From: a virus
Reading direction: 5' to 3' (one strand)
Length of the DNA: 64,000 nucleotides
IMG/VR virus record: IMGVR_UViG_3300028840_004447
Made by a program: the position numbers and the translations under genes. Shown here one piece after another: positions 3,477 through 34,831 of the stretch; position 1 is the first letter of the stretch, and every line of letters begins with the position of its first letter. The notes beneath the pieces were generated by a model. The model made no database searches and was not told the origin of the DNA. It saw only the letters and a list, made by a program, of their open reading frames with translations.

Positions 3477-5492
3477 ATGAAACATTTCACCCGAATTTCC
3501 GCAATCCTCATGGTCCTGTTCCTGGTTTTTGCAGGAACAGCGTCGGCCCAGCAATACTACAGGCCCTGGGTCAAGACCGTTGAGCTCACTGTTCAGAATC
3601 CCCCGGTCTTTGAATCGGGACTTGGCCTGGCTGACTCCGGCGACGAATGGTTTGTCAATTCCAACGCATCAGGAACCGCTGCCGGTACCAGTTGGACAAA
3701 TGCATGTCTGACTATTGATGCTTGTATCAATCTGGCTACTGCGTCAAACGGGGACATTATCCATATCTCCTCCACCCATGCCGAGTCCTTTACAGCGGCG
3801 GACGGTTTTGACGTGGATAAGGCTGGCCTAACCCTGATCTTCCATGGTGAGGGACAGAACCAGGCCACCTTGACCTTTGCCGATACTGATGCAACCGTTG
3901 CATGTGGCGCGGCCAATGTAACCATCTTTGGTGGCCGCTATCTGGCAGGAATCTCCGCGGTTGTGCTTGGCATAGCTGTTGAGGCTACCTGCGATAATTT
4001 CACGCTCATCAATCCTGTCTTCCCTGAGCCCGCTACATCCTCGTATGAATTTCTGGATGCGATTGATCTGGCTGCGGGAGCTGATAACGTGAAGATCATC
4101 AATGCTTGGGCACGGTCCGCTGATGCTACCGGGGCTGCTCATTTTATCGAGGCCGGCAACGGGGTAAACAACGGGCTGGAAATCATCAATCCTGACATTG
4201 AGGGTGAATACTCTGTCGCGGCCATTTGGTCCGACACGGCTGATCTGGAAACCCGGATCGCTGGCGGTGTTATCACCAATATGACCAATGGCCAGCATGC
4301 GGTCGAGTTCACCGCGGCTGCAACAGGTGTCATTCAGGATATCCTGTTGAGAACGGATGCTCAGGGCACTGCCTTGGATCCGGGCTCCCTTGGTATGTCG
4401 AATGTCCTCTGGGATGATGATGCGGTGGCTGATGCCACGGCTGGTCCTGTTGTACTCGGTGCTCTCGGTCCTGCAACTATAGGTCCGATCAACTCCACCA
4501 CCACGGATTCTGTCAATGGTAAGATCGGGACGGATACCGAGATGGCGGACAGCTCTTTGTATGATCTGCTCGGTGCAGGTGCCAAGACCCTTGCTATTTC
4601 TGCATCAGTAGGTGCGGATGTGGATGGGGCCACGACCGATACCCTCCAGGGTAAGATCGGTACGGATACCGAGATGGCCGATAATTCCTTGTATGATCTG
4701 CTCGGCGCGGGAGCCAAGACCCTTGCTATTTCGACTTCTGTCGGGTCTGATGTAGATTCCGCTACCACGGACAATCTGCAAGGAAAGATCGGTACGGATA
4801 CCGAGCTGGCTGACAACAGCCTCTATGATCTGCTCGGTGCAGGATCCAAAACGCTTGACCTTTCTGCCGCTATTGGTTCCAGTGTCGACGGGACCACGAC
4901 AGATACCCTGCACGGGAAGATTGGAACCGATACCGAAATGGCTGATAGCTCCTTGTATGATATGCTCGGGGCGAATAATGCAACTACCACGGATTCGCTC
5001 AATGGTAAGATTGGAACCGACACCGAAATGGCGGATAGTTCCTTGTATGACATCTTGCTTCAGATGGAGCGGACGGCCACAGGTTCCACGGCTGTCATGG
5101 CCAACGGCGATACGATTTTCACCATTGCCGGCGGACCAATTAAGATCGTTGAACTGGTCTCGGTCTGTATCACCCTGAATGATGCCACAGCATCCACTCT
5201 GCAATATTCGGCTGATCCCACAGTCGGAGCTGCAACGACCATTTCAGGAGCTTCGGCTTCTTTGGCAAATGCGGCCGCGGGATCTGGTGTAGTTCTGAAT
5301 ATGACTGCGCTTGCAACCGCTCCAGACGTAGTGGATCCGCTTGTTGACCTCGGTGGCGTTGATACCCGCGGGATAATTGTGAATGAGGGTATTATCACAA
5401 TCGTGGTTGGGGTCGGAACAACGACCGGTACCTGGAAGCACTATATCAGGTATCAGCCGCTTGCACCCGGCGTGACTGTTACCGGCACATAG
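3477..5492 (+). CDS. Signal-peptide-bearing, repeat-containing protein next to the capsid gene (putative head decoration/fibre)
   Basis: N-terminus MKHFTRISAILMVLFLVFAGTASA. Beta-rich Ala/Thr/Asp/Gly composition with internal 44-aa repeats. Confidence 0.55.
   Translation: MKHFTRISAILMVLFLVFAGTASAQQYYRPWVKTVELTVQNPPVFESGLGLADSGDEWFVNSNASGTAAGTSWTNACLTIDACINLATASNGDIIHISSTHAESFTAADGFDVDKAGLTLIFHGEGQNQATLTFADTDATVACGAANVTIFGGRYLAGISAVVLGIAVEATCDNFTLINPVFPEPATSSYEFLDAIDLAAGADNVKIINAWARSADATGAAHFIEAGNGVNNGLEIINPDIEGEYSVAAIWSDTADLETRIAGGVITNMTNGQHAVEFTAAATGVIQDILLRTDAQGTALDPGSLGMSNVLWDDDAVADATAGPVVLGALGPATIGPINSTTTDSVNGKIGTDTEMADSSLYDLLGAGAKTLAISASVGADVDGATTDTLQGKIGTDTEMADNSLYDLLGAGAKTLAISTSVGSDVDSATTDNLQGKIGTDTELADNSLYDLLGAGSKTLDLSAAIGSSVDGTTTDTLHGKIGTDTEMADSSLYDMLGANNATTTDSLNGKIGTDTEMADSSLYDILLQMERTATGSTAVMANGDTIFTIAGGPIKIVELVSVCITLNDATASTLQYSADPTVGAATTISGASASLANAAAGSGVVLNMTALATAPDVVDPLVDLGGVDTRGIIVNEGIITIVVGVGTTTGTWKHYIRYQPLAPGVTVTGT
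4500..5057 (+). repeat. Intragenic tandem repeat, 132-bp (44-aa) period
   Basis: Five copies of the core GKIGTDTE(M/L)AD(S/N)SLYD. The first two cores start at 4518 and 4650. Confidence 0.92.
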
Positions 5493-5499
5493 TATATAG

Positions 5500-5566
5500 C
5501 CGTGGGGATAGGATGACGATCCGAAAAACCGAAATCCTGGCCGGTCTTCCCCACGGTCTGCTTTTT
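5500..5566 (+). terminator. Bulged hairpin plus T-run (possible terminator/attenuator)
   Basis: CCGTGGGGA (5500-5508) pairs with TCCCCACGG (5548-5556), inner AGGAT/ATCCT, followed by TCTGCTTTTT. Confidence 0.55.
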
Positions 5567-5618
5567 CCAGGAACCGAACAGACAACAACAACTCATTTAG
5601 TATAAGGAGACCTATATC

Positions 5619-5999
5619 ATGAAAACTGATCCCAAGAGCAATTTCACCATTGAGGATGGATTGGATGCACAGTCGAGAACAGCAGATACCTACTACACCA
5701 GCCCAGTTGTAGATCACGGTGATGCACCGGCTGTCACTTTCCACGTAAGCTGCGGTATCTTTGCCACGTCTTTCGTTGCTACTCTTCAGCACAGCGACGA
5801 CGGTGTAGCCTATACCGATGAAGCAGATACGTCATACGGCAATACCGTGAGCTTAACCCTGCTGGCCGCGGGTGAGGGGAATATCCATTGCCCCAACCCG
5901 AGAGCCCGCTATACCCGACTCAAGGTCGTCATTGGCGGCACTTGCGAATTCAGCGTGACCAATGTCTTCGGACCCCTGAGGTATGTCGATCAGGGCTAA
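5619..5999 (+). CDS. Small beta-rich head-associated protein (putative capsid decoration/cement)
   Basis: 126 aa, located in the head module, with the same leader as the capsid gene. Confidence 0.5.
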   Translation: MKTDPKSNFTIEDGLDAQSRTADTYYTSPVVDHGDAPAVTFHVSCGIFATSFVATLQHSDDGVAYTDEADTSYGNTVSLTLLAAGEGNIHCPNPRARYTRLKVVIGGTCEFSVTNVFGPLRYVDQG

Positions 6000-6136
6000 A
6001 GCCCACAATTGACGCCTCGCAGGCTGGTGCAATACGGGTGGCAGTTTGGACAAATGTAGCTCCGGGCTGTCCACCCGTATCTTACAAATGAAGTCAGGAC
6101 AAACCAGGACAACCTTGCCAGGAGAGGAGAAAGACA

Positions 6137-7465: not shown

Positions 7466-7762
7466 ATGAAAAAGTTAATTCTATTCATATGCACCGTGGT
7501 TCTAGTTGGCTCAGTCATGATCGGGCTGGAAGCTCAAACGTATGTAAAGGTCACAGAGGATAATACGGTATCCGCTAAGGAGGATGTCGTTGTTCAGGAG
7601 ACCAAATCCACGGAAACCGTGACCCAGTATTCCCTGACCAGCATTGATAAGGATATTGCCCAAATTGATGCGCAGATTGCATACCTTCAGGCCAAACGGG
7701 CAGAACTCGTGACCCTGAGAGCGGCGGTGTCCACCGAGGCTGATAAAGTGGTCTTGAAATAG
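7466..7762 (+). CDS. Small exported coiled-coil protein
   Basis: Signal peptide MKKLILFICTVVLVGSVMIGLEA and C-terminal heptads. Confidence 0.6.
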   Translation: MKKLILFICTVVLVGSVMIGLEAQTYVKVTEDNTVSAKEDVVVQETKSTETVTQYSLTSIDKDIAQIDAQIAYLQAKRAELVTLRAAVSTEADKVVLK

Positions 7763-15887: not shown

Positions 15888-16237
15888 TGATTTCTATTAC
15901 TACCACAACTTCGCAAACAAACGCGGCCGTCCTTATCAAAAATTACAAGGTTGGCTCCGATATCCAGGATGGATCGGCACGGATCAGCAAGAACAAGACG
16001 CTGGACGGCGCGGTGGCCATTATACACAACGGATTTGTTGAAGGGGACCGTACCCTTAAGGTGGAGGGCAGGCTGTCTGAGACCGAGTCTGACGTCCTCT
16101 GGGATATCTTTTCAACAGAGACCTTTGTCAATATAGCAATACCGGATGGGCTTTTCGACGGCGTCATTGCCCGATTGAAGAGGAAGTACGGGGTTATTAC
16201 AATGACCCTTGAACTGAAGGAGAAGCTTACATCATGA
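15887..16237 (+). CDS. Distal tail-like protein
   Basis: Immediately after the TMP. R.S...TLDG.V...H.G....DRTL motif. Confidence 0.55.
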   Translation: MISITTTTSQTNAAVLIKNYKVGSDIQDGSARISKNKTLDGAVAIIHNGFVEGDRTLKVEGRLSETESDVLWDIFSTETFVNIAIPDGLFDGVIARLKRKYGVITMTLELKEKLTS

Positions 16238-16407
16238 AGGTGAAATCAGATTTTGGCGCAAAGTTCGAGGCTGAACTGTGGCGAGATGGCAAATTGGTAC
16301 CTGATGAGCCTAAACCCACAATTGACCCGGATGCGGTTTTAGTCCAGAAAGATAGTGCAAGTATTATGCTTGCCGAGTTAACCAAAAAGGAGAAATCCCA
16401 TGAATGA
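16234..16407 (+). CDS. Small hypothetical protein (57 aa, not in ORF track)
   Basis: ATGA overlap with the upstream stop. MKVKSDFGAKFEAELWRDG... resembles the N-terminus of the next gene. Confidence 0.5.
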   Translation: MKVKSDFGAKFEAELWRDGKLVPDEPKPTIDPDAVLVQKDSASIMLAELTKKEKSHE

Positions 16408-16987
16408 CATTTTCAAACCAGACAACAGTTTGCTGCTTCCGAAACCCGGGCTTAGCCTCGTTGCACGGCCGATCGTCAAGTCGGTCTGGGATGTGGAGCA
16501 CTGGAGAAAAGGGGAACTGCTTGACAAAACCCGTGACCATAATATCGTAACAGCCGAAGGCCTGAACCAGCTCCTTCGGATCATGTTTACGGGCGGCACA
16601 CAGATCCCGCTTGCCAATTGGTATATTGCAATCTTCAAATCGGATACCACCCCTGCGGATGGTACCACATATGCGACGCCGGTTTATACTGAGGAAACCG
16701 ATTACGATTCGGCAACCCGACCGCAATGGCAAGGTGGTTCGGTCTCAGGCAAATCCGTGGATAACTCTGCCAATAAGGCCACGTTTGTTTTTGATGCCAC
16801 GTCTGATGGGGATACGATCTATGGAGCTTCCCTGGTCGGTGGATCAGGGGCGGATGTCAAGGGTGATACGGCTGACACTGATGGCCGATTGTATGCGGCT
16901 GCTCAGTTCAGTTCTTCCAAGACTGTAGAGGATGACGATACCCTGAAGGTCACGGTTACCTTAACCGCTGCCGACGACGGAGTATAA
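16400..16987 (+). CDS. Minor tail protein
   Basis: NIVT.EGLN..L, WYIAI, Y....R..W, IYGA.LV, G.LYAA..F...K.V...D.L.VT pattern common in siphophage tail tips. Confidence 0.65.
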   Translation: MNDIFKPDNSLLLPKPGLSLVARPIVKSVWDVEHWRKGELLDKTRDHNIVTAEGLNQLLRIMFTGGTQIPLANWYIAIFKSDTTPADGTTYATPVYTEETDYDSATRPQWQGGSVSGKSVDNSANKATFVFDATSDGDTIYGASLVGGSGADVKGDTADTDGRLYAAAQFSSSKTVEDDDTLKVTVTLTAADDGV

Positions 16988-16990
16988 CAC

Positions 16991-20045: not shown

Positions 20046-20058
20046 AGGAGATAATAAA

Positions 20059-20408: not shown

Positions 20409-20768
20409 ATGGCACTTTGGTTAAGCGAACTAGGAGCAAATGGAGCAGCTGGTGGACTGGCCTGGGTAGATCGGGGAGTTGTTACTCTGAGTGGCGGAGT
20501 TCTAGATGCTTCTGCCGGCCCTGGGTTGTATACTGTTGCGGCAGAAACAGGCACGGCGGACAATCTTACTCAGATCACGGGGTTGACCCTATTTGAAGGG
20601 ATCAGGATCCAGCCTGATACAGGTGATACGATCACGGTCAAGGATGGGGCAAAACTGCATCTCCAAGGGGTCGACTTTCCCATGGATAACGTGAATGACC
20701 TGATGGAGCTAACATGCAATGTAGCTGGCGATGAATGTACTGAAGTATCGCGGGCTGATAACAACTAA
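20409..20768 (+). CDS. Small beta-rich tail-associated protein
   Basis: RBS GGAAGGAAGG, 119 aa. Confidence 0.5.
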   Translation: MALWLSELGANGAAGGLAWVDRGVVTLSGGVLDASAGPGLYTVAAETGTADNLTQITGLTLFEGIRIQPDTGDTITVKDGAKLHLQGVDFPMDNVNDLMELTCNVAGDECTEVSRADNN

Positions 20769-23700: not shown

Positions 23701-24641
23701 GCAATATTGGTTGGGGCGGTGTGACTCCAACACAGAAGTATGAGTTTGCACATACTTCGGATTTCAAGTTTGCTGTTGATCTGTATAGTGTAACCAATAC
23801 AGACGAGGCAGAAATCGCTATTCGGAAAAACGGGAACGCCACTTATGGTGGTTGGACGAAAACCGTGGATGAAGAGGAAATTGGAGATCTTACTTTCTAT
23901 GGTGTCAATACGGGTGAGACTGATTGGGCTCCAATGGCTCGGATGCGGGTCGAACAGGAAGGGAATGCAGGGGCAACTTATAACCCATCTAAGCTGATCC
24001 TTGAACCGACAAGTTCTTCCGGCTACCTATCTTATAAGCTCGTGCTTGATACGAACGGGCTGTCTGGTATTAATACCGGTGGCAATCCTGCTTATGAGTG
24101 GCATGTTGGCGGAGCTAGTGTTTCGAGGATAGGTCTGACGACAGGCGGTTCTGATGATGCAACAATCCACTTCGCTGATGGGACCACGGATGAGTGGGAA
24201 CTGAAACGAGAAGAGACAGGGAACTATTTTGAGATCTATGAAACAGGGGTCGGCACGCACTTTCAGATGGCGCCTGGCGGGGCTGCGACCTTTGCCAGTA
24301 CAGTAGATGGGGAGACTGTTGTGAACCTGTCCACGGCTGCTACAGTGACCGTATCGGGTACAAATCAGTTCTATGTAAATAATGATGATGATGCAATCGA
24401 GTTTGATCTGCCGGCAGATCCCACGGGTAATATGTTTTGCTTCCGAAACCGGTATGCTCAGGCTATCACGATTGATCCGAATGGAACAGACGTGATCACA
24501 ATGACCGATACAGCGGCATCGGCAGGAGAGGCTGTAGTCTCAACAGGCGCGGCAGATGAATATATATGCCTGGCTGGTGTGGATACCTCCAACTGGATCG
24601 GTATGGGGATCGTCGGAACGTGGGCAGAAGAAACACCGTAA
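20781..24641 (+). CDS. Large modular tail-fibre/adhesin-like protein with signal peptide
   Basis: MKFKITTLLMVALLLCASSAFG. Two ~115-aa N-terminal repeats (AQG.DVASAN..TLGNDGN.FDITGTTTINTIAT...) and two C-terminal repeats (F.D....EW..KREETGNY.EI.ETGVG). Confidence 0.65.
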   Translation: MKFKITTLLMVALLLCASSAFGGIGSPMIEGKALTTTLMEAQGADVASANALTLGNDGNAFDITGTTTINTIATQGVGTRVTLQFDGILQLTHSADLVLPTGSNITTAAGDIAVFYEYASGDWRCETYTRADGTALSADAALLLDGSTQMTGPVKMAQGSDVASANNMTLGNDGNFFDITGTTTINTIATKAVGTRVTLQFDGILQLTHSADLVLPTGANITTAAGDIASFYEYATGDWRCDTYLRADGTALVDDDGLTSVAVQTGAYSANANEWVPCNVAAGGFTVTLPATPANGTRMVIANVTVAAGNTNVLQIDSAGGDTFAIAAGPTSLYSTEFLEVYNLQYDASKATWELIQTAAPSNYAVNFPGIDAQTPLTSADISVDTGTRVLTVTPPLGYFNIVVNGDGRARKFRKDGAQAFPAFTDTSGMWYFYFNSSGTATTTQTPWTGADFHTSALVYRLYWNATETGADKLVDEYVEYHENDIPADTHQWLHLYGAVWVSGGVMTNNALTSGAPAADGSETVIGLSTVTVTDDNLEYTVTNASSPSADWEQDLGETNAGSLDATNSGQFEIFVQDGAGLVTYLPATRFPFDWGSGDNIPQYITSTGTRTDVTNTYYMVWFVYATQNPNQGVAVKLVSAPTEYADITSARSVTWTTIQNTYSILNDGEIRPLYRLISQVRHSASPYPAGAKYTALRETQDLRKAEVTSTTVATGSLPASSVTVVAAGNISSTNAQAALEELDTEKFQLAGVAGGQTAIGGTASGDDLILQSTSDATKGLFGFDIPTPTAKYHFGHNAAYSAVFDMYSTTNSTMADIAIRKSSSGTLETLAQTADGEDLGSISWYGVKGTLAWAIGARIRVAQDSTTNVYTPGALIFETYERTSGVRTNAYRINSSGGSSWNVSAVSIADFDMRSSSGATELALASNSSDADVTLSFADNAVIEWNIKREETGNYLEIWETGVGMYTQYAPGGNIGWGGVTPTQKYEFAHTSDFKFAVDLYSVTNTDEAEIAIRKNGNATYGGWTKTVDEEEIGDLTFYGVNTGETDWAPMARMRVEQEGNAGATYNPSKLILEPTSSSGYLSYKLVLDTNGLSGINTGGNPAYEWHVGGASVSRIGLTTGGSDDATIHFADGTTDEWELKREETGNYFEIYETGVGTHFQMAPGGAATFASTVDGETVVNLSTAATVTVSGTNQFYVNNDDDAIEFDLPADPTGNMFCFRNRYAQAITIDPNGTDVITMTDTAASAGEAVVSTGAADEYICLAGVDTSNWIGMGIVGTWAEETP

Positions 24642-24667: not shown

Positions 24668-27600
24668 ATGAAAAAGATACTTTGCCTAATTCTGGCATTT
24701 TGCCTGATTATCCCAGCTCCATCGTTTGCTCTGATGATAACCGCTCTCACGCCAAGTGGGAGCGGTGCCGAAACGGTGGGCTGGTTAGAGGACTGGGAAA
24801 AACGGGTTGAAATCACTCTTTCCAATACCAATGTGGATTCGGAGTTGACCAATTTCCCTGTCCTCGTTTATCTGAGTGCAAGCTCAGGAACTGGAACAGA
24901 TGATGTGAGTTTTGTCTTTGACGAACTTACATCAGATGATAATCGCAAACGAATAGCCTTAACTTCCTCGGATGGAACCACCCAGCTATACGGGGAGATT
25001 GAGCGCTGGGATGATGCGAATGAGAAAGCGTGGATCTGGGTCAAAGTCCCCACTGTTAGTGACTCGGAAGATACCACGATCTTTCTTTACTTTGATGACA
25101 ATCAGCCTGAAAACACGACCTATATTGGAGACTCGACTGATGACGTAGCACATAATGTATGGGACTCAAATTACGTGGCTGTCATGCATATGGCTCAGGA
25201 TCCGGATGGCGATGCAACGGATGCCATGAAGGATTCCACGTCCAATGAGAATGACGGTACTCCAACAGGGACCATGACCTCGGCTGATCTGGTTGACGGT
25301 AAGATCGGCAAGGCAATCGAGTTTGATGGGTCTGATGATGGGATTGAACTCAAGAACGAAAGTCAGTTCGATTTTGCTACTGAGTCCTTCACCCTGGAAG
25401 CATTTTTCTATACTGAGACTGTCGCATCTGGAAATTATGAGATTGCAGGGAAGCACCATGATGCAGATCCTTCGGGTTATTTTATGCGGGAAGATGGAAC
25501 GAATGGTGATTTCAATGCATGGATTTATGATTCGGGTGGTTATGAAAGTGCTGGGAGTTCGGGCGGAGTTATGTCTGTTCAAACTTGGTATTACGGCTCG
25601 ATGATGTATGATGCTACAGGCAATAATTTGTATGCAAACTTCAACGGGACAGATTATGGACCGACAGGAAGCGTGCTTTCTCCCGTCGGGAATAATAACC
25701 CGTTCACAATCGGTAAGGAAAACGACGGCACAGATTTCCCATGGGAAGGGCAGATTGACGAAGTCCGTGTTTCCAATATCAAACGAACAGATGATTGGTT
25801 GAAGGCCAGCCGTATCTCAGGCACGGATGGTCTTGCAAGCTACGGGTCTGAAGAAGAGTATGCAAATGTGTGGTTAGGGAGCTGGGAGAACAGGATTCCT
25901 TTGACTATATCCAATACAAATGTCGATTCCGACCTGACCGATTTTCCTGTCCTTGTTTATCTGTCAACCTCATCCGGGACAGGCACGACTGATGTAAGTG
26001 CAGTATTTGATGAACTGAAGTTCGACGGGAACAGGAAGAAAATCGCAATCACTTCAGCCGACAAACTCACACAGTTATACGTGGAGATTGAGCGCTGGGA
26101 TGATGCAAATGAGAAGGCCTGGCTCTGGGTAAAGGTTCCCACTGTTTCTTCATCCGCTTCTACTCTGCTTTATCTGTATTATGATATCAATCAGCCAGAC
26201 AATGCAGTCTATGTCGGGGATACAACCGAGACGGCTGCTCAGAATGTTTGGGATGCTAACTTTCTAAATGTCTATCATATGGCTCAGGATCCAAATGGAG
26301 ATGTAGCTGATTCGGTCAAGGACTCTACTTCTAATGCAACCCATGCAGATCCCGAAGGAACCATGACAACCGATGATCTTGTGGATGGAAAAATCGGCAA
26401 AGCAATTGAATTTGATGGATCTGATGATGCTTTAGGTGGGATCGGAAACTTTGCCGTTGCAACCGGAACAACAGAAGCTTATATCAATATGACGACCGAT
26501 ATTAGCGGTAATTACATGTGGGTCGGTAATGGAAATGGATCAAGTGATACGGTTTGGTTCAGTGGATTCGTAAGTTCGATTGACGATGTTCGGACATCGG
26601 TCTACAATAGCGGATGGACAGACCTTGACACAACAACGGGCGATTGGGAGACAAATACATATTACAGTATGGCAACCCTTTGGGGAACGGGTGGGATGAG
26701 CATCTGGGTTGGTGGTGCAGAATCTATAAACAATGCAACTACAACCTTGCCCGCTTCTCCCACGACTGGCTGGATTGCGGACTCATCTCCTAATGGAAAT
26801 CAACATTTTAAGGGGATCATTGATGAAGTTCGAATCTCAGATATCCAGAGATCTGATGAATGGCTAAAGGCGACTTACTATTCCAATGAAGACGGCCTGA
26901 TTGCTTATGGATCTGCATCCACTTCGGCACCGGGTTGGTTATCAGGGGAATGGGACAGTCGTATCCTGATCACTCTCGATGATACAAATGTTGACGGATC
27001 CTTGGCCAATATTCCTGTGCTCCTGTATATTAGTGCAGCCTCCGGTCCGGGTTCCGCTGATCTGTCTCCCGTGTTTGATGAACTGGCTTCTGATGCAAAT
27101 CGGAAGAAAATTGCAGTGACCAAAGCCGATGGCGTGACTGAACTGTATGTGGAGATTGAGCGCTGGGATGACGCAAATGAGAAGGCCTGGCTCTGGGTAA
27201 AGGTACCCAAACTATATATGAAAGGATCCAATTCACTATTCTTCTATTTTGATGCAGATCACGCAGACAATGATTCCTATGTGGGTGATACTACTGATGC
27301 AGTCGTTCATAATGTCTGGGATTCTAACTATGCCCTGGTTTACCATATGGCTCAGGATCCAAACGGGGATGTTGCAGATTCTATCAAGGACTCTACTTCC
27401 AACGAGAATGACGGAACTCCTGTCGGATCCATGACCACTGCGGATCTGGTTGACGCCTATATCGGCAAAGGTCTAGAGTTTGATGGGTCTAATGATTATA
27501 TCTCTGTAGGTGACCATACTTCCATTAGAGTTACAACAGGGCTCACGATTGAAATTGCAGCCAATTTGACAGCCACCACGGACGAGGGTATTATTCAGAA

Positions 27601-29068
27601 GGGCACGGACTTCAATAACGAGTACGGAGTCTATGCAATCTCAAATGCTGGCGGAGCTTGGAAGCTCAGATTGAATGCTTCAGACACAGAAGGGAATGGA
27701 AAAGAGTCCGGGGGATCTGCTTCGACAGGAACCTGGTACTCGGTATTTGGTAGTTATGGTGACCAAACTATGTCCTTGTCCGTGGACACGGCCAGCATCG
27801 GTTCGTCTTCCTTCACGGGACCACTGAACACTGACACAAATGCGATTCGGGTTGGTGATTACTGGTCCTCCTTATTCACAATTAACGGGCTGCTTGACGA
27901 GGTCCGACTTTCAAATATAGCCCGAAGCGCTGATTATGAAAAGGCAACTTACTATTCCAATACGGATGACCTTGCTTATTACAGCTCGGTAGAAAACGAC
28001 CCTGATTTCCTGAGCGGCTGGGATCAGCGGCTTAGGATTGACCTGGACAATTCCTTCTTTACCTCTGCCGAGACTGATTTCCCTGTTCTCGTCTACTTGA
28101 GTGCGAGTTCAGGCAAAGGGGCGAGGGATGTAAGCTATGTGTTTGATGAACTGGCTTCAGATGCCAATCGGAAAAAGATTGCAGTTACGAGTTCTGATGG
28201 TGAGACAGAACTATACGCCGAGATTGAACGCTGGGACGATGCGAATGAGAAAGCATGGCTATGGGTCAAGATTCCAACCTTCAAAACAGAAGGGAATGCC
28301 ATGTCTCTGTTTTTCTATTTTGACGCAGACCACGCAGACAATACAACCTACATTGGAGACACAACTGATGCAGTAACTCATAATGTATGGAACTCGGATT
28401 TCTCAGTTGTCTACCATATGGCTCAGGATCCAAACGGGGATGTTGCGGGGTCTATAAAGGATTCGACTTCCAATGGCGACGATGCGGATCCAAACGGATC
28501 CATGGTCACGGCTGATCTGGTTGACGGCCAGATTGGTAAGGGTATTGAGTTCGACGGCTCCTCCCAATATTTGGATGGGATCACAGAAGTCTTCTTTGCT
28601 GATGCAACCGGCACGATAGAGGTCTGGGGCAAATGGACAGCTATTGCAGCAAACCGAACACTGGTTGGAGTTCAGAATGGAAGCAGTGATGGAGTCGGAG
28701 CTATTCAGTATCAAAATGCACAAGATGCTTTGCGATTGGCCATACACGATGGTGGCTGGGACACGATTGATTGTGTGGGCTGTATTTCCGCAGGAACATT
28801 CTATGGTGGTGCAGGAACCTGGGACGGTAGCGGAAAGATACTTTATCTCAACGGCACCGCTGTTGGAACTAACTCAGATACAGGCGGCTCGGTTGGTGCA
28901 GCCTCTTCATCAGTCGGTCGCCATTCTGGCAATGGTCCTGAGTATATGTACGGAATAATTGATGAGGTTAGATATTCGACAATCAGCCGGGATGCGGAGT
29001 ATCTGAAGGCAACCTATAATTCTAATATTGACAATATAGGATATTTCAGCGCAGAAGAAACCCCATAA
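24668..29068 (+). CDS. Exported protein with four tandem DUF2341-like + LamG/ConA-like modules
   Basis: Start moved to ATG 24668 (MKKILCLILAFCLIIPAPSFA). Four copies of W..R......VDS.L..FPVL.YLS.SSG / EIERWDDANEKAW.WVK.P / HMAQDP / DG.IGK.IEFDGS / IDEVR.S..R...W.KA. Confidence 0.85.
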   Translation: MKKILCLILAFCLIIPAPSFALMITALTPSGSGAETVGWLEDWEKRVEITLSNTNVDSELTNFPVLVYLSASSGTGTDDVSFVFDELTSDDNRKRIALTSSDGTTQLYGEIERWDDANEKAWIWVKVPTVSDSEDTTIFLYFDDNQPENTTYIGDSTDDVAHNVWDSNYVAVMHMAQDPDGDATDAMKDSTSNENDGTPTGTMTSADLVDGKIGKAIEFDGSDDGIELKNESQFDFATESFTLEAFFYTETVASGNYEIAGKHHDADPSGYFMREDGTNGDFNAWIYDSGGYESAGSSGGVMSVQTWYYGSMMYDATGNNLYANFNGTDYGPTGSVLSPVGNNNPFTIGKENDGTDFPWEGQIDEVRVSNIKRTDDWLKASRISGTDGLASYGSEEEYANVWLGSWENRIPLTISNTNVDSDLTDFPVLVYLSTSSGTGTTDVSAVFDELKFDGNRKKIAITSADKLTQLYVEIERWDDANEKAWLWVKVPTVSSSASTLLYLYYDINQPDNAVYVGDTTETAAQNVWDANFLNVYHMAQDPNGDVADSVKDSTSNATHADPEGTMTTDDLVDGKIGKAIEFDGSDDALGGIGNFAVATGTTEAYINMTTDISGNYMWVGNGNGSSDTVWFSGFVSSIDDVRTSVYNSGWTDLDTTTGDWETNTYYSMATLWGTGGMSIWVGGAESINNATTTLPASPTTGWIADSSPNGNQHFKGIIDEVRISDIQRSDEWLKATYYSNEDGLIAYGSASTSAPGWLSGEWDSRILITLDDTNVDGSLANIPVLLYISAASGPGSADLSPVFDELASDANRKKIAVTKADGVTELYVEIERWDDANEKAWLWVKVPKLYMKGSNSLFFYFDADHADNDSYVGDTTDAVVHNVWDSNYALVYHMAQDPNGDVADSIKDSTSNENDGTPVGSMTTADLVDAYIGKGLEFDGSNDYISVGDHTSIRVTTGLTIEIAANLTATTDEGIIQKGTDFNNEYGVYAISNAGGAWKLRLNASDTEGNGKESGGSASTGTWYSVFGSYGDQTMSLSVDTASIGSSSFTGPLNTDTNAIRVGDYWSSLFTINGLLDEVRLSNIARSADYEKATYYSNTDDLAYYSSVENDPDFLSGWDQRLRIDLDNSFFTSAETDFPVLVYLSASSGKGARDVSYVFDELASDANRKKIAVTSSDGETELYAEIERWDDANEKAWLWVKIPTFKTEGNAMSLFFYFDADHADNTTYIGDTTDAVTHNVWNSDFSVVYHMAQDPNGDVAGSIKDSTSNGDDADPNGSMVTADLVDGQIGKGIEFDGSSQYLDGITEVFFADATGTIEVWGKWTAIAANRTLVGVQNGSSDGVGAIQYQNAQDALRLAIHDGGWDTIDCVGCISAGTFYGGAGTWDGSGKILYLNGTAVGTNSDTGGSVGAASSSVGRHSGNGPEYMYGIIDEVRYSTISRDAEYLKATYNSNIDNIGYFSAEETP

Positions 29069-29133: not shown

Positions 29134-29478
29134 ATGCCGAAAGATGACTTGAAACTTAGCTTGCAACGACGGTCAACAGAGAACGGAATCACAAGTGCTA
29201 ATTTCGAGGCCATGGATGATGTCACCCGGGCCTGGCACCTCTATTCACGGATCAATGCCGTCGGGGGAGCTGTTGAAAGTCTTGTAGATCATCTGTCCGA
29301 TCACTGTCCTGCTCAGCAAGATGAATGTGTAGACAAATTCATCAAGTTAGAAGCAAAAGTGGATAAGATAAAGATCGGAGCAATCATCTGTATTTCTCTC
29401 TCGCTAGGAACGGCAATCGGGATGGGAGTACTCAACCACGATAAAGCAATCGGGATCTTGCTTAAGCTCTTTGCCTGA
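29134..29478 (+). CDS. Membrane-anchored protein (holin/antiholin-like)
   Basis: C-terminal hydrophobic segment, directly upstream of the endolysin. Confidence 0.45.
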   Translation: MPKDDLKLSLQRRSTENGITSANFEAMDDVTRAWHLYSRINAVGGAVESLVDHLSDHCPAQQDECVDKFIKLEAKVDKIKIGAIICISLSLGTAIGMGVLNHDKAIGILLKLFA

Positions 29479-29505
29479 TCCCACAATTAGCCAGGAGACC
29501 GGGAT

Positions 29506-29928
29506 ATGAAACCAGCAGCAATTGTGATACACCACAGTTTGACAAAAGATTCGAAATCTGTTTCATGGTCAGCCATCCGTCGCTATCACAAACAAACCTG
29601 CGGGTGGCGTGAAATTGGTTATCACTATGGAATCGAAATGGTCGGCACAGAACCTGAGATCTTTGTCGGGCGTATGATGAATGAATACGGCGCTCATTGC
29701 AAGGACTCGGGCATGAATCGCATTTCACTAGGGATCTGTTTAGTCGGGAACTTTGACGAGGAAGCTCCGCCCACAATTCTCTGGGAGCGAGGGTTAGTTC
29801 TAGTTCGGAGCTTGCTCGATCTGCTGGACATTAGTCCATCTGATGTTTACGGCCACCGGGATTTTTCTGACAAGTCCTGCCCTGGGGATATGTTTGATAT
29901 GGATCAGTTCAGAAAGGATTTGATATGA
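29506..29928 (+). CDS. Endolysin, N-acetylmuramoyl-L-alanine amidase (Amidase_2)
   Basis: IVIHHS, IRRYH...GW..IGYHY, GAH, N..SLGICLVGNFD, GHRDF..KSCPG zinc-amidase motifs. Confidence 0.93.
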   Translation: MKPAAIVIHHSLTKDSKSVSWSAIRRYHKQTCGWREIGYHYGIEMVGTEPEIFVGRMMNEYGAHCKDSGMNRISLGICLVGNFDEEAPPTILWERGLVLVRSLLDLLDISPSDVYGHRDFSDKSCPGDMFDMDQFRKDLI

Positions 29929-30275
29929 ACCCGGAAATCAGGGAAATTATCCAGACAATCAAACCCGAGATCTTTATGCTGTTAGGCTGGGCGTCAATTG
30001 TGGGATTCCTAGCCCTAGTAGCACAGGGGATCATCAGGAGCTATGTGGCGTATTATTTCTTCCTGACGAATGAGCAACTCTGAGTGAACACAAAGGTCCG
30101 AGTTCGCGGACACGACGGAGTGATCACGAAATACAACAGGAAGAATATCATCATCCGAGTGGCTGATGGCGTGGAGCTGATTGATATGCGCGATTGGCGA
30201 AAGGAGAAATGGGCAATCCTGTATAACGGAGAGTTCAAACGTGTAGCTGATATAGGAAAAGGAGAAGAATCATGA
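29925..30275 (+). CDS. Membrane protein with MscS-like beta domain, interrupted by in-frame TGA at 30081-30083 (readthrough or pseudogene)
   Basis: ATGA-coupled to the endolysin. TM helix, then ...EQL*VNTKVRVRGHDGVITKYNRKNIIIR in the same frame. Confidence 0.55.
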
Positions 30276-30475
30276 AACCGATGAAGGGATGGAAGACATG
30301 GACAGGGGCCGTGCTGATTATTCTATCAGCATTTGCAGCGAAGATCTGTGTGGCATTAACCGTACCTGAGTACGCGGCGGATGCTTCCAATATTTGTATG
30401 AAGGCAGGAATGGCTCTCGGCGGAGTGGGCGTTGCTCACAAGGTTGAGAAATTGATGACAGCTCTGAAGAGCTAA
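30272..30475 (+). CDS. Small two-helix membrane protein (holin-like)
   Basis: KGWKTW.GA N-terminus and hydrophobic segments. Located in the lysis region. Confidence 0.5.
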   Translation: MKPMKGWKTWTGAVLIILSAFAAKICVALTVPEYAADASNICMKAGMALGGVGVAHKVEKLMTALKS

Positions 30476-30513
30476 CAGACGGTCAGGACTAAGGCCAGGA
30501 AAGGAGAACCAAA

Positions 30514-30978
30514 ATGAAAGCAATTGTAACGAGACGAATGATTCGGTGGAGTTTGTTGGGCGTATTCATGTTTCTGTGTCTGATCTTCGGGTGCGCACAT
30601 CTGCCCGGGGCGCCTTCTGTTTGTGATGATATTAAGGGCAGGTCATTGCTCTGCCAAATGTCTGAGCAAAGTGGGGTGGCCTTGGAAGATATTGGCAATG
30701 CATTCGTGATTGCGAATGCAGTGGCCATCGGTGAGGGTTTGTATACCAAAGATCAGGCGCTGGACGTGATGCAGGAATTTCTACGCTTCCTAGAGGCTCC
30801 AGTTTCATATGTATTTGTCCGGAATACAGTGAAGCAATATACGGACAAATACCCCGGTCTTCTGGTCGTTTCTCAGATGTATGTGGACCGCTTCATCAGT
30901 GGGCGGATCATGTATAAGGACGACCAGGAAATTCTCAAGGCTTGGCTGGCTAAGCAAGTCAAAACACTCTCATCCTAA
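30514..30978 (+). CDS. Predicted lipoprotein
   Basis: Basic N-region, hydrophobic core, lipobox LIFG-C. Confidence 0.65.
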   Translation: MKAIVTRRMIRWSLLGVFMFLCLIFGCAHLPGAPSVCDDIKGRSLLCQMSEQSGVALEDIGNAFVIANAVAIGEGLYTKDQALDVMQEFLRFLEAPVSYVFVRNTVKQYTDKYPGLLVVSQMYVDRFISGRIMYKDDQEILKAWLAKQVKTLSS

Positions 30979-30989
30979 AGGAGGACCGT

Positions 30990-31223
30990 ATGAAGAGGAC
31001 CATTTTGATTTTGACCTTGAGCCTGCTCTTTGTGGCTGTTGCAACGGCTGGTCCGATCATTGAGGAGGATCTTCTCCCGGAAGTTACAGAGGAAGAAGTC
31101 CAGGACCAGTTTGAGATGGAAGGACAGAAACAGAAAATCGATGATCCGAAGTTCAAGAAGATCATCGTCAAGAAACCCGAAAAGCTGGTGAAAACCAAAA
31201 ACAAGGATAAGGAGGAGCTATGA
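30990..31223 (+). CDS. Small exported charged protein
   Basis: MKRTILILTLSLLFVAVATA signal peptide. Confidence 0.6.
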   Translation: MKRTILILTLSLLFVAVATAGPIIEEDLLPEVTEEEVQDQFEMEGQKQKIDDPKFKKIIVKKPEKLVKTKNKDKEEL

Positions 31224-32419
31224 AAAAACAAATGATACTTAGTTGGGTTCTGTTCCTTCTTTTGGTTTTCTCGGGATCGGCAGGGGCAACCATCACCCAG
31301 TTGTATTTCTTTGATGATACTGAAGGCACGACAAAGATGCTCACGGGCACGGGTGATATGGCCTTCTACCACGGGACCGTCGGCAATCAGCATTACAAGA
31401 GTGCTAGCAAGGCCTACACAGATGGCGTTACAGAAGGTGCCCCGTATGCAGATAATACACTGAGGTTCCTTCGGACACCGAATATAGATCTGTCAAAGCA
31501 CTCAGGGAGTCTGTATGCTAGCTATTCAATTTGGCATCAGTTGTTCGAGGGGGATACCCTTCGGGTTATGTCCTGCAAAGATGCCACGACTTGCTATCTG
31601 ATGGCAACTCGGGAGTGTGCACTCACTTCCAGTATGACATCCTATTATTTCACGATTCCCCAGGACCATAAGACGTCGACCTGGCATTTGCGCTTCCAGC
31701 TGGATACGGAATCAGATAATGCAGATGGTGTCTATATTGATGATATCATCATCAGTGACGACCAGAATGCAAATATGACTGCCGTGAATGCTCTTGGTCC
31801 TCCGACCACTCCTTGGTGTTCGGGCGGTTGCCCCGACGGGCCTGATCTGGAACCCAAGCTTTTGTCGGGATGGGATAACAAAATCATCCCTTCCAAGGTT
31901 ACCGGCACACGAACTTCTGTGACCGAGTTCACAACTTCAGATACGATCTATGTGGACTACAATTGCGGGAACACTGATGCAAGTCAGGCTGTCTCTGGCA
32001 CTTGGCGCTATGGGTTATATCTGAATGATACCCGAATCAAGTATTTCGAACGGACGGCGGACCTTGCTGCCGGATCGACTTCCTATATCAGTGATTCGGA
32101 TATCGGAACTTTGTCCGCGGGCACTCATTCCCTGAAAGTCGTATGTGATTACGATTCGAACATCGGGGAGGATGATGAAACTAACAACTCCTATACACGG
32201 AGTAGCATCACGGTCACAAGTGATTCAACAGGTACTTGGACATTGACTGCCACCCAGCAATGCACTCCGGTTACTCAAGATGATGGTCCTCAGTCCGGCG
32301 GCTGTGATTACGATCCGCAGGATCCTCCGAAATGGGACGTGCTCTGCACGAGCTGTTGCCAAGGTCCGATGGGAATGATGTGGAATATCGTCGATACATG
32401 GGCTTGTATCGAAAACTAG
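31220..32419 (+). CDS. Exported beta-sandwich + CARDB-like + 6-Cys C-terminal domain protein
   Basis: Signal peptide. L.TP.IDL...VYIDDI.I jelly-roll pattern. PDL.P...GTHSLKVV.DY...I.E.DETNN (CARDB). Confidence 0.7.
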   Translation: MKKQMILSWVLFLLLVFSGSAGATITQLYFFDDTEGTTKMLTGTGDMAFYHGTVGNQHYKSASKAYTDGVTEGAPYADNTLRFLRTPNIDLSKHSGSLYASYSIWHQLFEGDTLRVMSCKDATTCYLMATRECALTSSMTSYYFTIPQDHKTSTWHLRFQLDTESDNADGVYIDDIIISDDQNANMTAVNALGPPTTPWCSGGCPDGPDLEPKLLSGWDNKIIPSKVTGTRTSVTEFTTSDTIYVDYNCGNTDASQAVSGTWRYGLYLNDTRIKYFERTADLAAGSTSYISDSDIGTLSAGTHSLKVVCDYDSNIGEDDETNNSYTRSSITVTSDSTGTWTLTATQQCTPVTQDDGPQSGGCDYDPQDPPKWDVLCTSCCQGPMGMMWNIVDTWACIEN

Positions 32420-32434
32420 AAAGGAGATGATACC

Positions 32435-32596
32435 ATGAAAAGAATCGCGATTATACTGATCATTCTCGGTTTGGTTTTTAGCCCGGTAGTCTATGCAAAA
32501 AAGAAAGCTGCAAAGGCTACTCCCGTGGATCAGCAGGAAGAGGTCCAGAAGGACAAGGATATTCGACCTGTCAAGGAATCCAAGAAGTCGAAATGA
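32435..32596 (+). CDS. Small exported basic protein (53 aa, not in ORF track)
   Basis: RBS AAAGGAG. MKRIAIILIILGLVFSPVVYA-KKK... Confidence 0.6.
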   Translation: MKRIAIILIILGLVFSPVVYAKKKAAKATPVDQQEEVQKDKDIRPVKESKKSK

Positions 32597-32652
32597 GGCC
32601 AAGCTAAGAACTGGGATACGGTCGTAGAACCTAGAAAGGAGAACTGATTATT

Positions 32653-33447
32653 ATGAAACGATTTTTGATTATCCTCTTGGCCTTTGGCCTGATGGCAGGG
32701 TATGCTTCGGCAGAAATCACGAAGCTATATTATTATACGGATTTCGAAAGCAATCCGAGCTGGGGCCAGGGGAGTCCGTACAATTGGGAGCTGGCCATGC
32801 GGCCTTCTGCATATCCTCAGTATATGGAGAGCGGCTGGTCAGGTTTTGCTCATTACAGCTTAACCGGCCATGATCCGTGGGATACTTACGATGCCAACTA
32901 TGACACGGGCAGGTTATACTCGCCTGAGATTGATCTGTCGAGTGAATCAGATCCGATCTATGTCACATATTCCATGTATTACGGGATTGCAAAAGATGGT
33001 GACCTTCTCAAGATTTGGGTTTGCAATGATGGGACTTGCACACTCAGATTCTCAGCCGAGTGTTCTACCTTTGGAAAGCAAACCAGATTCTATTTCCAGA
33101 TCCCGTCGGAAGATTATGATACGGATACGCAGATTGCCTTCCAGCTCATTACCAATTCCTCGGGAAATGCTTTCGGTGTAATTCTTGACGATTTCATCAT
33201 CAGTGATGACCCGCAGGCTGATATGGATGACATAGATAATCTTGGCAATCCCTCGGTCCCTTGGTTCGACGGGGGAACATGGACAAAAACCCTTAGCTAT
33301 GAATGCCTCCCGATTACTACTGATGATGGTCCACAAAGTGGTAACTGTCCAACAGTAGATGAAATCAAATGGGATATCCTGTGCTACAATTGCTGTGATG
33401 AGTTCAATATGTGGCACAGGATGGACCAATGGAAGTGCGTTGATTAG
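32653..33447 (+). CDS. Exported paralog of 31220..32419 lacking the CARDB domain
   Basis: Signal peptide. Aligns by eye across the N-domain and the C-terminal DDGPQSG.C...KWD.LC..CC...W.C domain. Confidence 0.7.
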   Translation: MKRFLIILLAFGLMAGYASAEITKLYYYTDFESNPSWGQGSPYNWELAMRPSAYPQYMESGWSGFAHYSLTGHDPWDTYDANYDTGRLYSPEIDLSSESDPIYVTYSMYYGIAKDGDLLKIWVCNDGTCTLRFSAECSTFGKQTRFYFQIPSEDYDTDTQIAFQLITNSSGNAFGVILDDFIISDDPQADMDDIDNLGNPSVPWFDGGTWTKTLSYECLPITTDDGPQSGNCPTVDEIKWDILCYNCCDEFNMWHRMDQWKCVD

Positions 33448-33456
33448 GAGTCAGCC

Positions 33457-33897
33457 ATGAGAGGCGAAATCCGAGACCATAATGGGATCAGGTATAAGGT
33501 CCTGACGAACTGGCACCTGTTCCGCAATAGGTATGAACTGCTTGAGCCCTATTTTATTCGCACGGGGTTCATCGGTTATGATATCGAGACGGATCGGGTT
33601 AAATTGACCCCTGACGGAATGCTGTGCCTGAAAGCAGGATATACATGGGACGGTCCGTCAGGTCCCACAGTTGACACGAAGAACTTCATGCGCGGATCGC
33701 TAGGGCACGATGGGAAGTATGAGCTATTCCGATTAGGTCTGCTTCCTCACACAGGCCGGATCATTGCAGATTTGGAACTTCAGAAGGATTGCTTGAAGGA
33801 TGGAATGTCAGGACTTCGAGCCATGTGGGTCTTCTGGGGTGTGCATCTGTTTGCTTCATTTGCAGCTCGGCCCACGGTCATAATGAAAGGAGTATGA
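33457..33897 (+). CDS. DUF1353-like protein
   Basis: GY.WDGPSGP..DT...R.SL.HD..Y motif and final hydrophobic helix. Confidence 0.7.
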   Translation: MRGEIRDHNGIRYKVLTNWHLFRNRYELLEPYFIRTGFIGYDIETDRVKLTPDGMLCLKAGYTWDGPSGPTVDTKNFMRGSLGHDGKYELFRLGLLPHTGRIIADLELQKDCLKDGMSGLRAMWVFWGVHLFASFAARPTVIMKGV

Positions 33898-34220
33898 AGA
33901 TGAAACTACTGCCAGGATTTTTGATGATAACTGTCCTCGTATTCTCGGGGTGTGGAACAGCCAAGAGGATCGGGCTGGCCAAGCTGGGGATGACCACGAC
34001 CACAATTGAACTAAGCGAGGACAAGAAGAAAGCAGAAATTGTATCCAAGTCGGATTCAAAGGTCACATTCACGGCGGATGCGAATGGAATTACTGGAGCA
34101 ACCGTGGATAATCAGGGCCGGCCAGGTTTGCCTGAACGATTGGCCGAATCCCTGGTCAACAGGACCTCGCTTGTGGTCGGATCCGGGGTGGATACCATTA
34201 AGCAAGATTCCGATGATTAA
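33894..34220 (+). CDS. Predicted lipoprotein
   Basis: ATG 33894 (ATGA overlap). Lipobox VFSG-C. Confidence 0.65.
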   Translation: MKMKLLPGFLMITVLVFSGCGTAKRIGLAKLGMTTTTIELSEDKKKAEIVSKSDSKVTFTADANGITGATVDNQGRPGLPERLAESLVNRTSLVVGSGVDTIKQDSDD

Positions 34221-34315
34221 GGTCTGGATCCTGTCCCTAGCGGGCTACGCCAGCCCGTGCAAGCGACAGTTTCTAACCTTTTCCCATGGGTATACACGGC
34301 CAAGGGCCTTGAGGC

Positions 34316-34338
34316 CCTTAAAACGGCTCTGAGCGCGT
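34316..34338 (+). repeat. 23-bp exact direct repeat, copy 2
   Basis: Identical to 7845-7867. Confidence 0.9.
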
Positions 34339-34486
34339 CGGATTATGGGTGATCTGGCCGCGTTCAGAGCCGATCTAGGCACCGTTCTGTTTGGGGGATA
34401 TATCAGTATGGGTATTCTCTCGGGCGGGCAGGGTGCGTACGTGGGGGAGCCCGGCAGGGGTGTTTCAGGGGTTGGACACCCCTGCC
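34324..34486. terminator. Hairpins at the convergent junction of the two genome arms
   Basis: CGGCTCTGAGCGCG (34324-37) / CGCGTTCAGAGCCG (34359-72). GGCAGGGGTGT (34453-63) / ACACCCCTGCC (34476-86). Confidence 0.6.
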
Positions 34487-34495
34487 CGGCACACG

Positions 34496-34831
34496 TTACT
34501 TTTTGCGGCGTTTCTTGCCACTTGGTTGACCTTCCTCTTTCTCCTTTGCCTCGGCTTCTTCATCAGCTAGCCGCTTCTGCTCTGTAGCAATTGCAGCTTG
34601 GGTCTCCTGCATCTGTTGACGAAGCTGTTTCGACCGAAGTTGCAGCAAGGCCTGCCGGTTCCTCAGTTGAACCAGAATGACAGCCAAGTGCTCATTCTCC
34701 TCTCCGAGGTACTGATCCATTTGTTGAATAGCGGTCAACTTGGCCTTCAGTGCGTCGAGGGGTTCTGCTTGACTGATCCCGCACCAAAAGAGCAGGCCGA
34801 TCAAAGTTAATACTACTAGCATCCGTTTCAT
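34496..34831 (-). CDS. Exported coiled-coil protein
   Basis: MKRMLVVLTLIGLLFWCGISQA signal peptide and Gln/Leu heptads. Confidence 0.6.
   Translation of the reverse strand: MKRMLVVLTLIGLLFWCGISQAEPLDALKAKLTAIQQMDQYLGEENEHLAVILVQLRNRQALLQLRSKQLRQQMQETQAAIATEQKRLADEEAEAKEKEEGQPSGKKRRKK

Follow-up and report, generated by a model that had tools for sequence, protein, structure and literature searches.

We analyzed the late genes of IMG/VR virus record IMGVR_UViG_3300028840_004447, a stretch of 64,000 nucleotides (hereafter the window), which represents a siphovirus-like tailed phage from marine sediment whose plus strand forms a late operon from position 73 to ~34,220. The DNA is present in DNA sequencing runs of sediment and seawater metagenomes, which may be where it comes from, and no RNA run was listed for it. 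Twelve late genes in this phage start with predicted Sec/signal peptidase I or lipoprotein-type signals, as read from their sequences. An initial annotation had proposed export for eleven of the proteins, here named by their start positions:

3477..5492, plus strand: 671-amino-acid tailspike-like protein with a signal, directly after the major capsid gene
7466..7762, plus strand: 98-amino-acid coiled-coil protein that has a signal or membrane anchor; its gene separates the head-tail adaptor gene from a tail-completion gene
20781..24641, plus strand: 1286-amino-acid acidic fibre-like protein with a signal at residues 1-22
24668..29068, plus strand: 1466-amino-acid protein with four DUF2341 and LamG/ConA-like modules (Pfam)
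30514..30978, plus strand: 154-amino-acid putative lipoprotein (LIFG-C, Ala at +2)
30990..31223, plus strand: 77-amino-acid charged small protein with a signal (by the heuristic described below)
31220..32419, plus strand: 399-amino-acid Cys-rich protein (13 Cys) with a signal and a CARDB domain (Pfam CARDB, 2.5e-7)
32435..32596, plus strand: 53-amino-acid basic small protein with a signal (by the same heuristic)
32653..33447, plus strand: 264-amino-acid Cys-rich protein (9 Cys) with a signal, a paralog of 31220
33894..34220, plus strand: 108-amino-acid putative lipoprotein (VFSG-C, Gly at +2)
34496..34831, minus strand: 111-amino-acid coiled-coil protein that starts with a signal or anchor and has a basic tail, the last gene of a leftward operon

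All eleven starts were confirmed at these coordinates, and each reads as a Sec-type or lipoprotein-type signal. With a slash marking predicted cleavage, the signals read MKHFTRISAILMVLFLVFAGTASA/QQ in 3477, MKKLILFICTVVLVGSVMIGLEA/QT in 7466, MKFKITTLLMVALLLCASSAFG/G in 20781 and MKKILCLILAFCLIIPAPSFA/L in 24668, and those of the smaller genes downstream end in AVATA/G (30990), SGSAGA/T (31220), PVVYA/K (32435), GYASA/E (32653) and, on the minus strand, GISQA/E (34496). The nine Sec-type open reading frames (ORFs) have a basic n-region and an uncharged hydrophobic core of 10-15 residues in a total of ~18-26, with small residues at -3 and -1 (ASA, AFG, SFA, ATA, AGA, VYA, ASA, SQA and LEA), 7466 being the least typical. 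Compared with the lipobox pattern [LVI][ASTVI][GAS]C, the lipobox-like cysteines of 30514 (L-I-F-G-C) and 33894 (V-F-S-G-C) follow a Gly at -1 and have an unusual Phe at -3 or -2. Shine-Dalgarno sites precede the signal-bearing starts at normal spacing, the one at 24668 being weaker (GAGG).

We scored export signals with a single heuristic that has three requirements: a basic n-region; an uncharged core of 10 residues whose mean Kyte-Doolittle hydropathy is 2.2 or higher; and either a -3/-1 site or a lipobox. It was applied alike to the window, to related phage loci and to random and internal controls. Nine of the 31 late ORFs of at least 70 amino acids pass, or 12-13 late ORFs once short ones are counted (32435, 33894 and the holin-like 30272). 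The split is clean, with a core hydropathy of 2.7-3.6 in signal-bearing ORFs versus at most 1.9 in the other late ORFs. Among the early ORFs, 2 of 44 pass, both of them doubtful. In 85 related phage loci the rate is ~4% of ORFs (33/809 in L001-L047 and 28/752 in L048-L085); 118 of 20,000 random N-termini of the same composition (0.6%) and one of 148 internal Met windows pass. Fisher tests gave p = 3e-6 against the related loci and p = 0.004 against the window's own early genes. Taken together, the signals, the Shine-Dalgarno sites and the enrichment make export of the named proteins well supported at the level of sequence. We give hardly any credence to an artefact of start choice or to chance, by which the hydrophobic N-termini would be untranslated or meaningless: the weak ribosome-binding site at 24668 fits such a view, as does the scoring of signals by a home-made heuristic only, but the 0.6% chance rate, the Shine-Dalgarno sites and the signal kept, with varying sequence, by 49 of 49 members of the 3477 clade described below bring it close to refuted.

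The virion genes of the late operon, whose identities come from PHROGs matches, can be placed relative to these signals:

late operon, plus strand: head-morphogenesis fragment (PHROGs)
481, plus strand: prohead protease (PHROGs), no signal
2178, plus strand: HK97-type major capsid protein (phrog_10, 5e-58), no signal
6886, plus strand: head-tail adaptor (PHROGs), no signal
7878, plus strand: tail-completion protein (PHROGs), no signal
9335-11551, plus strand: double glycosyltransferase of 738 amino acids, between the tail-completion and tube-like genes, no signal
11573, plus strand: conserved tube-like protein of 338 amino acids (PHROGs), no signal
12635, plus strand: chaperone-like protein, no signal
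13278, plus strand: tape measure protein (PHROGs), no signal
15887-20768, plus strand: tail-tip genes (PHROGs), no signal

The heuristic is negative for every recognisable virion protein, namely the protease, capsid, adaptor, tube, tape measure and tail tip. The signal genes are found in four placements: after the capsid gene (3477), in the gap between adaptor and tail-completion gene (7466), past the last tail-tip genes (20781 and 24668), and in the lysis block and beyond, the last spanning 30272 to 33894 plus 34496 on the opposite strand. The initial annotation had presented the set as virion-module genes, among them the gene right after the major capsid and the two largest tail-fibre-like genes. 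About half of the listed signal genes belong to the lysis cassette or lie past it, outside the virion module. Two kinds of signal-bearing protein can be told apart: small proteins past the endolysin that are ordinary lysis or envelope factors, and large glycan-binding proteins from tailspike and fibre modules. The tail-tip proteins 16991 and 18651, neither of which has a signal, combine conserved parts with variable C-terminal ends, and the particle thus has receptor-binder candidates that lack signals. In a related phage, a tail-tip protein (L061, 7971-9911) begins with a DUF2341-type MSWLTGW and shares its C-terminal domain with 16991 of the window; from this composition, DUF2341 modules can belong to a signal-less tail-tip protein.

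Promoter-like and terminator-like sites are no commoner in the window than in shuffled sequence, and none flank the signal-bearing genes, whose GC content (0.48 versus 0.50) is near that of their neighbours. By these features the signal-bearing genes are best described as late genes that are co-transcribed with the structural genes, not as autonomous lysogeny genes. Of the hallmarks of morons, presence or absence between conserved neighbours was found, as 7466 has no counterpart at that position in a close relative carrying P0008 (the same relative keeps the signal-bearing beta-helix gene), the 3477 cassette is mobile, and the slot after the tail tip differs in L050; an own promoter and terminator and a deviant base composition were not. 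In that slot, L050 and L051 have unrelated signal-bearing proteins (672 and 246 amino acids), and the L050 slot proteins had no PHROGs or Pfam match. The common tail module was found in 38 loci, most of them without a large signal-bearing protein; the closest ones have one.

Protein 3477 is laid out as a signal (residues 1-24), a linker, a right-handed beta-helix (55-320), a repeat stalk (330-520) and a C-terminal beta-sandwich (530-671). Its AlphaFold2 model has a signal helix (2-21), a disordered linker, a beta-helix with a predicted local distance difference test (pLDDT) score above 95, and a low-confidence repeat region (330-520). Foldseek returned PL9 and pectate lyases, rhamnogalacturonan lyase, pectin methylesterase, several tailspikes and the tail fibres of phage 7-7-1. 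Three copies of residues 46-335 were modeled as a trimer, side by side along the helix, with a score of 0.67 versus 0.00 for the best control, at least 62% contact agreement between runs and a partner pLDDT of at least 83; the mark set for this score was reached by 21 of 30 solved homomers and by 0 of 23 single chains. Memory of solved tailspikes may be partly behind the score, and prediction supports 3477 as a homotrimer. Only ~30 low-confidence linker residues separate the signal from the helix, and we found no anchor domain there that would correspond to the particle-binding N-terminus of tailspikes.

The 3477 family comprises 166 matches, from uncultured sources, and 3477 had no match among 50,697 deposited phage records. 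No solved structure was found by sequence search for 3477, 20781 or 24668, and PHROGs and Pfam gave no match for the signal-less relatives of 3477 or for most of the signal-bearing proteins. By the heuristic, 85 of the best 120 homologs of 3477 carry a signal. In a tree of the helix region, the signal is present in 49 of 49 members of one clade and lies on one side of a branch with 99% support, which amounts to a single change. Members of this clade are only 35-70% identical, and the signal sequence itself drifts. Retention of the signal through such deep divergence, while its sequence drifts, points to selection for export, as for a working export signal. Toggling of the signal on and off within 3477 subfamilies had also been considered and was rejected by the tree, given the one change and its 99% support.

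The beta-helix gene stands directly after the capsid gene in the window, in L001, L005, L006 and L009 and on the P0008 contig, next to capsid genes of at least three different PHROG families, and signal-less members of the family behave alike. In L002, L003, L005 and L006, the 3477 homolog is the sole gene similar to any late protein of the window (48-60% identity, with full-length similarity in L002 and L003). Because phages whose head genes are unrelated have this gene alone in common, it is best regarded as a mobile cassette that does not co-evolve with the capsid, and its preferred landing site would be beside the capsid gene. A free exported enzyme or lectin that is made where late expression is highest could readily have such mobility, which is hard to account for in a protein docking on a particular capsid. 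The cysteine pairs 77/83 and 143/172 of 3477 co-occur in only 6-8 of the 49 signal-bearing homologs; Cys143 and Cys172 are absent in all 22 signal-less homologs, Cys77 is present in 2 of them and Cys83 in 1. The two pairs may be lineage-specific disulfides.

In 20781, the signal is followed by two copies of a ~100-amino-acid beta-sandwich module (residues 40-135 and 158-250). The module also occurs in other phage fibre-like proteins, where 40-330 residues of N-terminal sequence precede it; in 20781 the signal replaces this N-terminal region of the other homologs. In a signal-less fibre-like protein of 473 amino acids (L088, 5368-6789), encoded on a phage-like contig of a Thioalkalispiraceae metagenome-assembled genome (MAG), residues 231-314 are 80% identical to residues 42-125 of 20781. 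Eight of ten relatives have no signal; only L015 and L016 have one, and the L015 protein is an ortholog of 20781 that keeps the signal. In fold, 20781 is similar to the Mu fibre-chaperone complex, to a baseplate chain of a Klebsiella phage, to a capsid spike of a Pseudomonas phage and to the N-terminal domains of tailspike protein (TSP) 4 of phage CBA120. A feature search with 20781 in the Protein Atlas led to phage fibre-like clusters, all of them leads below 0.9.

The 24668 protein matches Laminin_G_3 (2e-46) and DUF2341 (2e-24) in Pfam, in four stretches each. All of its 24 viral homologs in IMG/VR begin without a signal at the motif MAWLxGWxKR, which a stop codon and a ribosome-binding site closely precede, and 24668 has 36 extra residues, a 21-residue signal and a 15-residue linker, ahead of this usual start. 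Since 24 of 24 homologs start without these residues, the 24668 signal is a lineage-specific graft. A homolog with 30% identity lies among the tail genes of Methanoculleus virus Blf4, whose published description includes no virion proteomics of this protein. The initial annotation had held that homologs routinely starting downstream of the hydrophobic segment would refute its proposal; such homologs are indeed the rule for 24668 and, for the most part (8 of 10), for 20781, but not in the 3477 clade.

Residue V37 of 24668 is encoded by an in-frame GTG at 24776, which aligns with the start codon (Met1) of all the signal-less homologs and has a GGGAG 14 nucleotides upstream; it may be left over from the ancestral start or serve as a second, weak one. 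In 20781 there is an internal in-frame ATG at 20862, just past the predicted cleavage site, with a GGGAG 4 nucleotides before it. We consider it very unlikely that 24668, and perhaps 20781, make two products, an exported form from the upstream start and a cytoplasmic virion form from the internal one. The exact alignment of GTG 24776 with the starts of signal-less homologs, some of which use GTG or TTG themselves, and the GGGAG upstream of each internal start are what such a scheme would produce. Yet the spacings of 14 and 4 nucleotides differ from the 6-9 nucleotides at the clear starts of this phage, L015 does not conserve the ATG of 20781, no internal start is present in 3477, and GTG 24776 may be just the ancestral relic.

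Downstream of 24668, the lysis genes comprise the following features, of which all but the endolysin were assigned from their sequence:

29134..30475, plus strand: lysis block of five ORFs, one of them an amidase endolysin
29134, plus strand: 114-amino-acid protein with a C-terminal membrane helix
29506-29928, plus strand: amidase endolysin without a signal (PHROGs amidase/endolysin, 9e-24)
29925, plus strand: 52-amino-acid one-helix membrane ORF
lysis block, plus strand: 63-amino-acid ORF
30272, plus strand: 67-amino-acid holin-like membrane protein

Three small membrane ORFs, 29134 with its C-terminal helix, 29925 and 30272, ring the endolysin and are holin/antiholin candidates. The putative lipoprotein 30514 had no family match and no relatives in IMG/VR. 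Proteins 31220 and 32653 are paralogs (E 1e-27) with a conserved cysteine pattern in common; they share an N-terminal domain of ~200 amino acids and a six-cysteine C-terminal tail. Both are near-orphans, 31220 having no relatives in IMG/VR and 32653 only 6 matches among 1.84 billion representative proteins. The neighbouring 33457 has a C-terminal hydrophobic helix, and its stop overlaps the start of lipoprotein 33894 by 4 nucleotides. Two-component spanins (Rz/Rz1) pair a coiled-coil protein anchored in the inner membrane with an outer-membrane lipoprotein, and their genes are adjacent, overlapping or embedded near that of the endolysin. Protein 34496 weakly matches the Rz-like spanin family phrog_89 (E 0.0045) and is a weak candidate for an Rz-like i-spanin; its gene lies on the opposite strand, convergent with that of lipoprotein 33894, which is not Pro-rich and had no family match. 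Overall, the signal-bearing group at the lysis block is largely ordinary for a phage of a diderm host, with small holin-like membrane proteins, two putative outer-membrane lipoproteins, a weakly Rz-like coiled-coil protein and small charged periplasmic peptides.

An alternative is that the N-termini are not cleaved. The proteins would then stay anchored in the inner membrane, most of each protein reaching into the periplasm as in an i-spanin, and would act there in lysis timing or envelope breakdown. We regard this as quite unlikely for the set. It would suit 7466 and 34496, in which longer hydrophobic runs precede coiled coils and of which 34496 has the weak Rz-like match, as well as the clustering of genes around the endolysin. 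Most h-regions are short, however (10-14 residues), with Ala at -1 and a small residue at -3 as fits cleavage, and lectin or beta-helix bodies of 670-1470 amino acids are not known parts of lysis systems.

The explanation that we favor, with somewhat better than even confidence and on the basis of sequence, is that the signal-bearing genes encode a set of late-expressed exported proteins that act on envelope or matrix glycans and are mostly not parts of the particle. Remodelling of the infected cell surface, one of the two options put forward in the initial annotation, agrees with this explanation. The proteins would be made together with the structural proteins from the late operon, cross the inner membrane via Sec and then be cleaved; the two putative lipoproteins would be acylated and, having no Asp at +2, probably be sorted to the outer membrane, and the exported proteins would fold in the periplasm. 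The small ones near the endolysin would be ordinary lysis or envelope factors, holin-like, spanin-like or lipoproteins of the Llp, Cor or Bor kind. The large ones (3477, 20781, 24668, 31220 and 32653) would consist of modules that bind or cut glycans and derive from tailspike and fibre proteins, the signal replacing or preceding the virion-proximal N-terminus of their relatives. While a long latent period lasts, they may act by binding or cleavage on envelope polysaccharides or the periplasmic precursors of these, and after release by lysis on the matrix around the cell. The effect could be less receptor display and less loss of progeny on debris, easier spread in sediment biofilm, or altered cell adhesion.

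Several observations weigh against this explanation. The large proteins are built of virion-type modules, including beta-sandwich domains like the N-terminal docking domains of tailspikes, and the likeness of the 20781 fold to such domains is the strongest point for a link to the virion. The position of the beta-helix gene beside the capsid gene across capsid families could tie it to the head. Signal-bearing members of the 3477 family are no richer in cysteine than signal-less ones, the two having similar contents. The signal-bearing genes have no promoter, terminator or base composition of their own, and ~12 kb would be a large amount of coding capacity to devote to accessory functions. Finally, no integrase was found within the 64-kb window, which makes lysogenic conversion unlikely.

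Some of these points would be expected if the large proteins were instead appendages matured in the periplasm, where they would fold and trimerise, to dock on finished particles before or at lysis, once the holin has opened the inner membrane. The appendages would be the capsid-adjacent beta-helix trimer and the two giant fibre-like proteins, and virion assembly would occupy two compartments, a route that is undescribed for tailed phages and that we hold to be doubtful here. In a variant, internal starts would yield both an exported and a virion-bound form of the same fibre. Consistent with periplasmic maturation, the genes lie inside the structural operon without their own promoter or terminator, the 3477 family adjoins the capsid gene in several capsid families, the 3477 beta-helix is tailspike-like and predicted to trimerise, the 20781 modules are similar to N-terminal domains of tailspikes, to baseplate domains and to a capsid spike of a phage, and signal-less homologs of 24668 and 20781 sit at tail-fibre positions. 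We nevertheless judge it unlikely. The core virion proteins of this phage have no signals, and 16991 and 18651 are signal-less candidates for receptor binding. A specific docking site is improbable for a 3477 cassette that is found among unrelated head genes and has no anchor domain between signal and helix; the relatives of 24668 work without a signal; and unrelated signal-bearing proteins fill the slot after the tail tip in L050, while 7466 is absent in a close relative. The proposal of the initial annotation that periplasm-matured virion parts attach at lysis is thus unsupported, as no recognisable virion protein has a signal, 3477 is mobile and 7466 is absent from a relative. Our literature searches found no tailed phage with a periplasmic route and no description of signal peptides on tailed-phage fibres. 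To our knowledge, no tailed phage has been shown to assemble via periplasm-matured parts.

We compared the exported set with known systems. Signal-bearing genes in late or tail regions are known from lom and bor of phage lambda, llp of T5 and cor of T1, phi80 and N15. Their products are exported or lipidated, are encoded among or after tail-fibre and lysis genes, and block receptors or change the cell surface without being parts of the particle, all of which is reminiscent of the present set. They differ in being single proteins of 60-210 amino acids that are often expressed from the prophage, whereas the window encodes five proteins of 264-1466 amino acids from tailspike, fibre and lectin modules, without promoters of their own and with no integrase in view. 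Sequence similarity to lom, bor, llp or cor was not found in the Pfam and PHROGs searches. The tailspikes of P22, HK620 and Det7 and the TSPs of CBA120 share with 3477 the right-handed parallel beta-helix and a side-by-side homotrimer (predicted in 3477), and with 20781 tailspike-type beta-sandwiches; they have an N-terminal particle-binding domain and no signal, whereas 3477 has a signal and ~30 residues before the helix. Phage proteins with DUF2341 and LamG have their domains in common with 24668, which differs in that it does not start directly at MAWLxGWxKR.

Published reports describe partial counterparts. In sediment viruses, nosD-like beta-helix genes lie beside terminase, protease and other structural genes, with proposed roles in adhesion, lysis or the matrix, and one of them has a signal peptide predicted by SignalP (Narayanan et al. 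2026, PMC13452462); the report has this one signal peptide, no signal-bearing clade and no adjacency to the capsid gene. Sec signals on genes of Porphyromonas gingivalis phages have been read as envelope modification via the host secretion system (Matrishin et al. 2023, PMC10367356); they concern capsid genes, spanins and genes of unknown function in a Bacteroidota host with its Q rule, and no fibre-like or tailspike-like proteins are named. The mosaic adhesive trimer (MAT) adhesins of Bdellovibrio are phage-tail-fibre-like proteins with a signal peptide and a conserved beta-rich domain that are exported and displayed on the surface (Caulton et al. 2024, PMC10769870), and thus fibre-like folds can pass Sec and assemble outside the cytoplasm. 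These are proteins of a cellular predator and not phage genes, and Foldseek placed Bd1334 at a probability of only 0.06 for 20781.

The known phage-encoded exported proteins are small exclusion or conversion factors, whereas here whole tailspike, fibre and lectin modules appear to have been re-routed to the periplasm, and one of them, 3477, defines a deep clade of proteins from uncultured phages, all sampled members of which have retained the signal peptide. If the proteins are free or envelope-bound glycan binders or depolymerases, they would be an overlooked means by which sediment phages deal with receptors, debris and biofilm. In that case they would also be an annotation trap, since such genes are called tail fibres, nosD or carbohydrate 'auxiliary metabolic genes', and they would be a source of secretion-competent depolymerases and lectins. 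Should the proteins be part of the particle instead, the assembly of tailed phages would require a further compartment, and views of it would have to change greatly.

Three further observations concern the rest of the window and its possible host. The double glycosyltransferase 9335 is found in the same place in relatives (the P0008 contig, L050 and L015), and its kept position suggests that virion or exported proteins are glycosylated. The minus strand from 34,496 on carries replication and nucleotide genes, namely PolA, a UvrD-like helicase, an AEP primase, a thymidylate-synthase-like gene and a C5 methylase. In the host search, the tube-like protein 11573 matched a 72% identical protein on a 3.2-kb contig (L086) binned to a Nanoarchaeota MAG, which is probably a misbinned phage contig, and a protein of the distant Marinobacter phage PS3; the Thioalkalispiraceae MAG contig with its 80% identical 20781 module gives a weak hint of either a gammaproteobacterial sulfur-oxidiser host or a recent exchange of the module.

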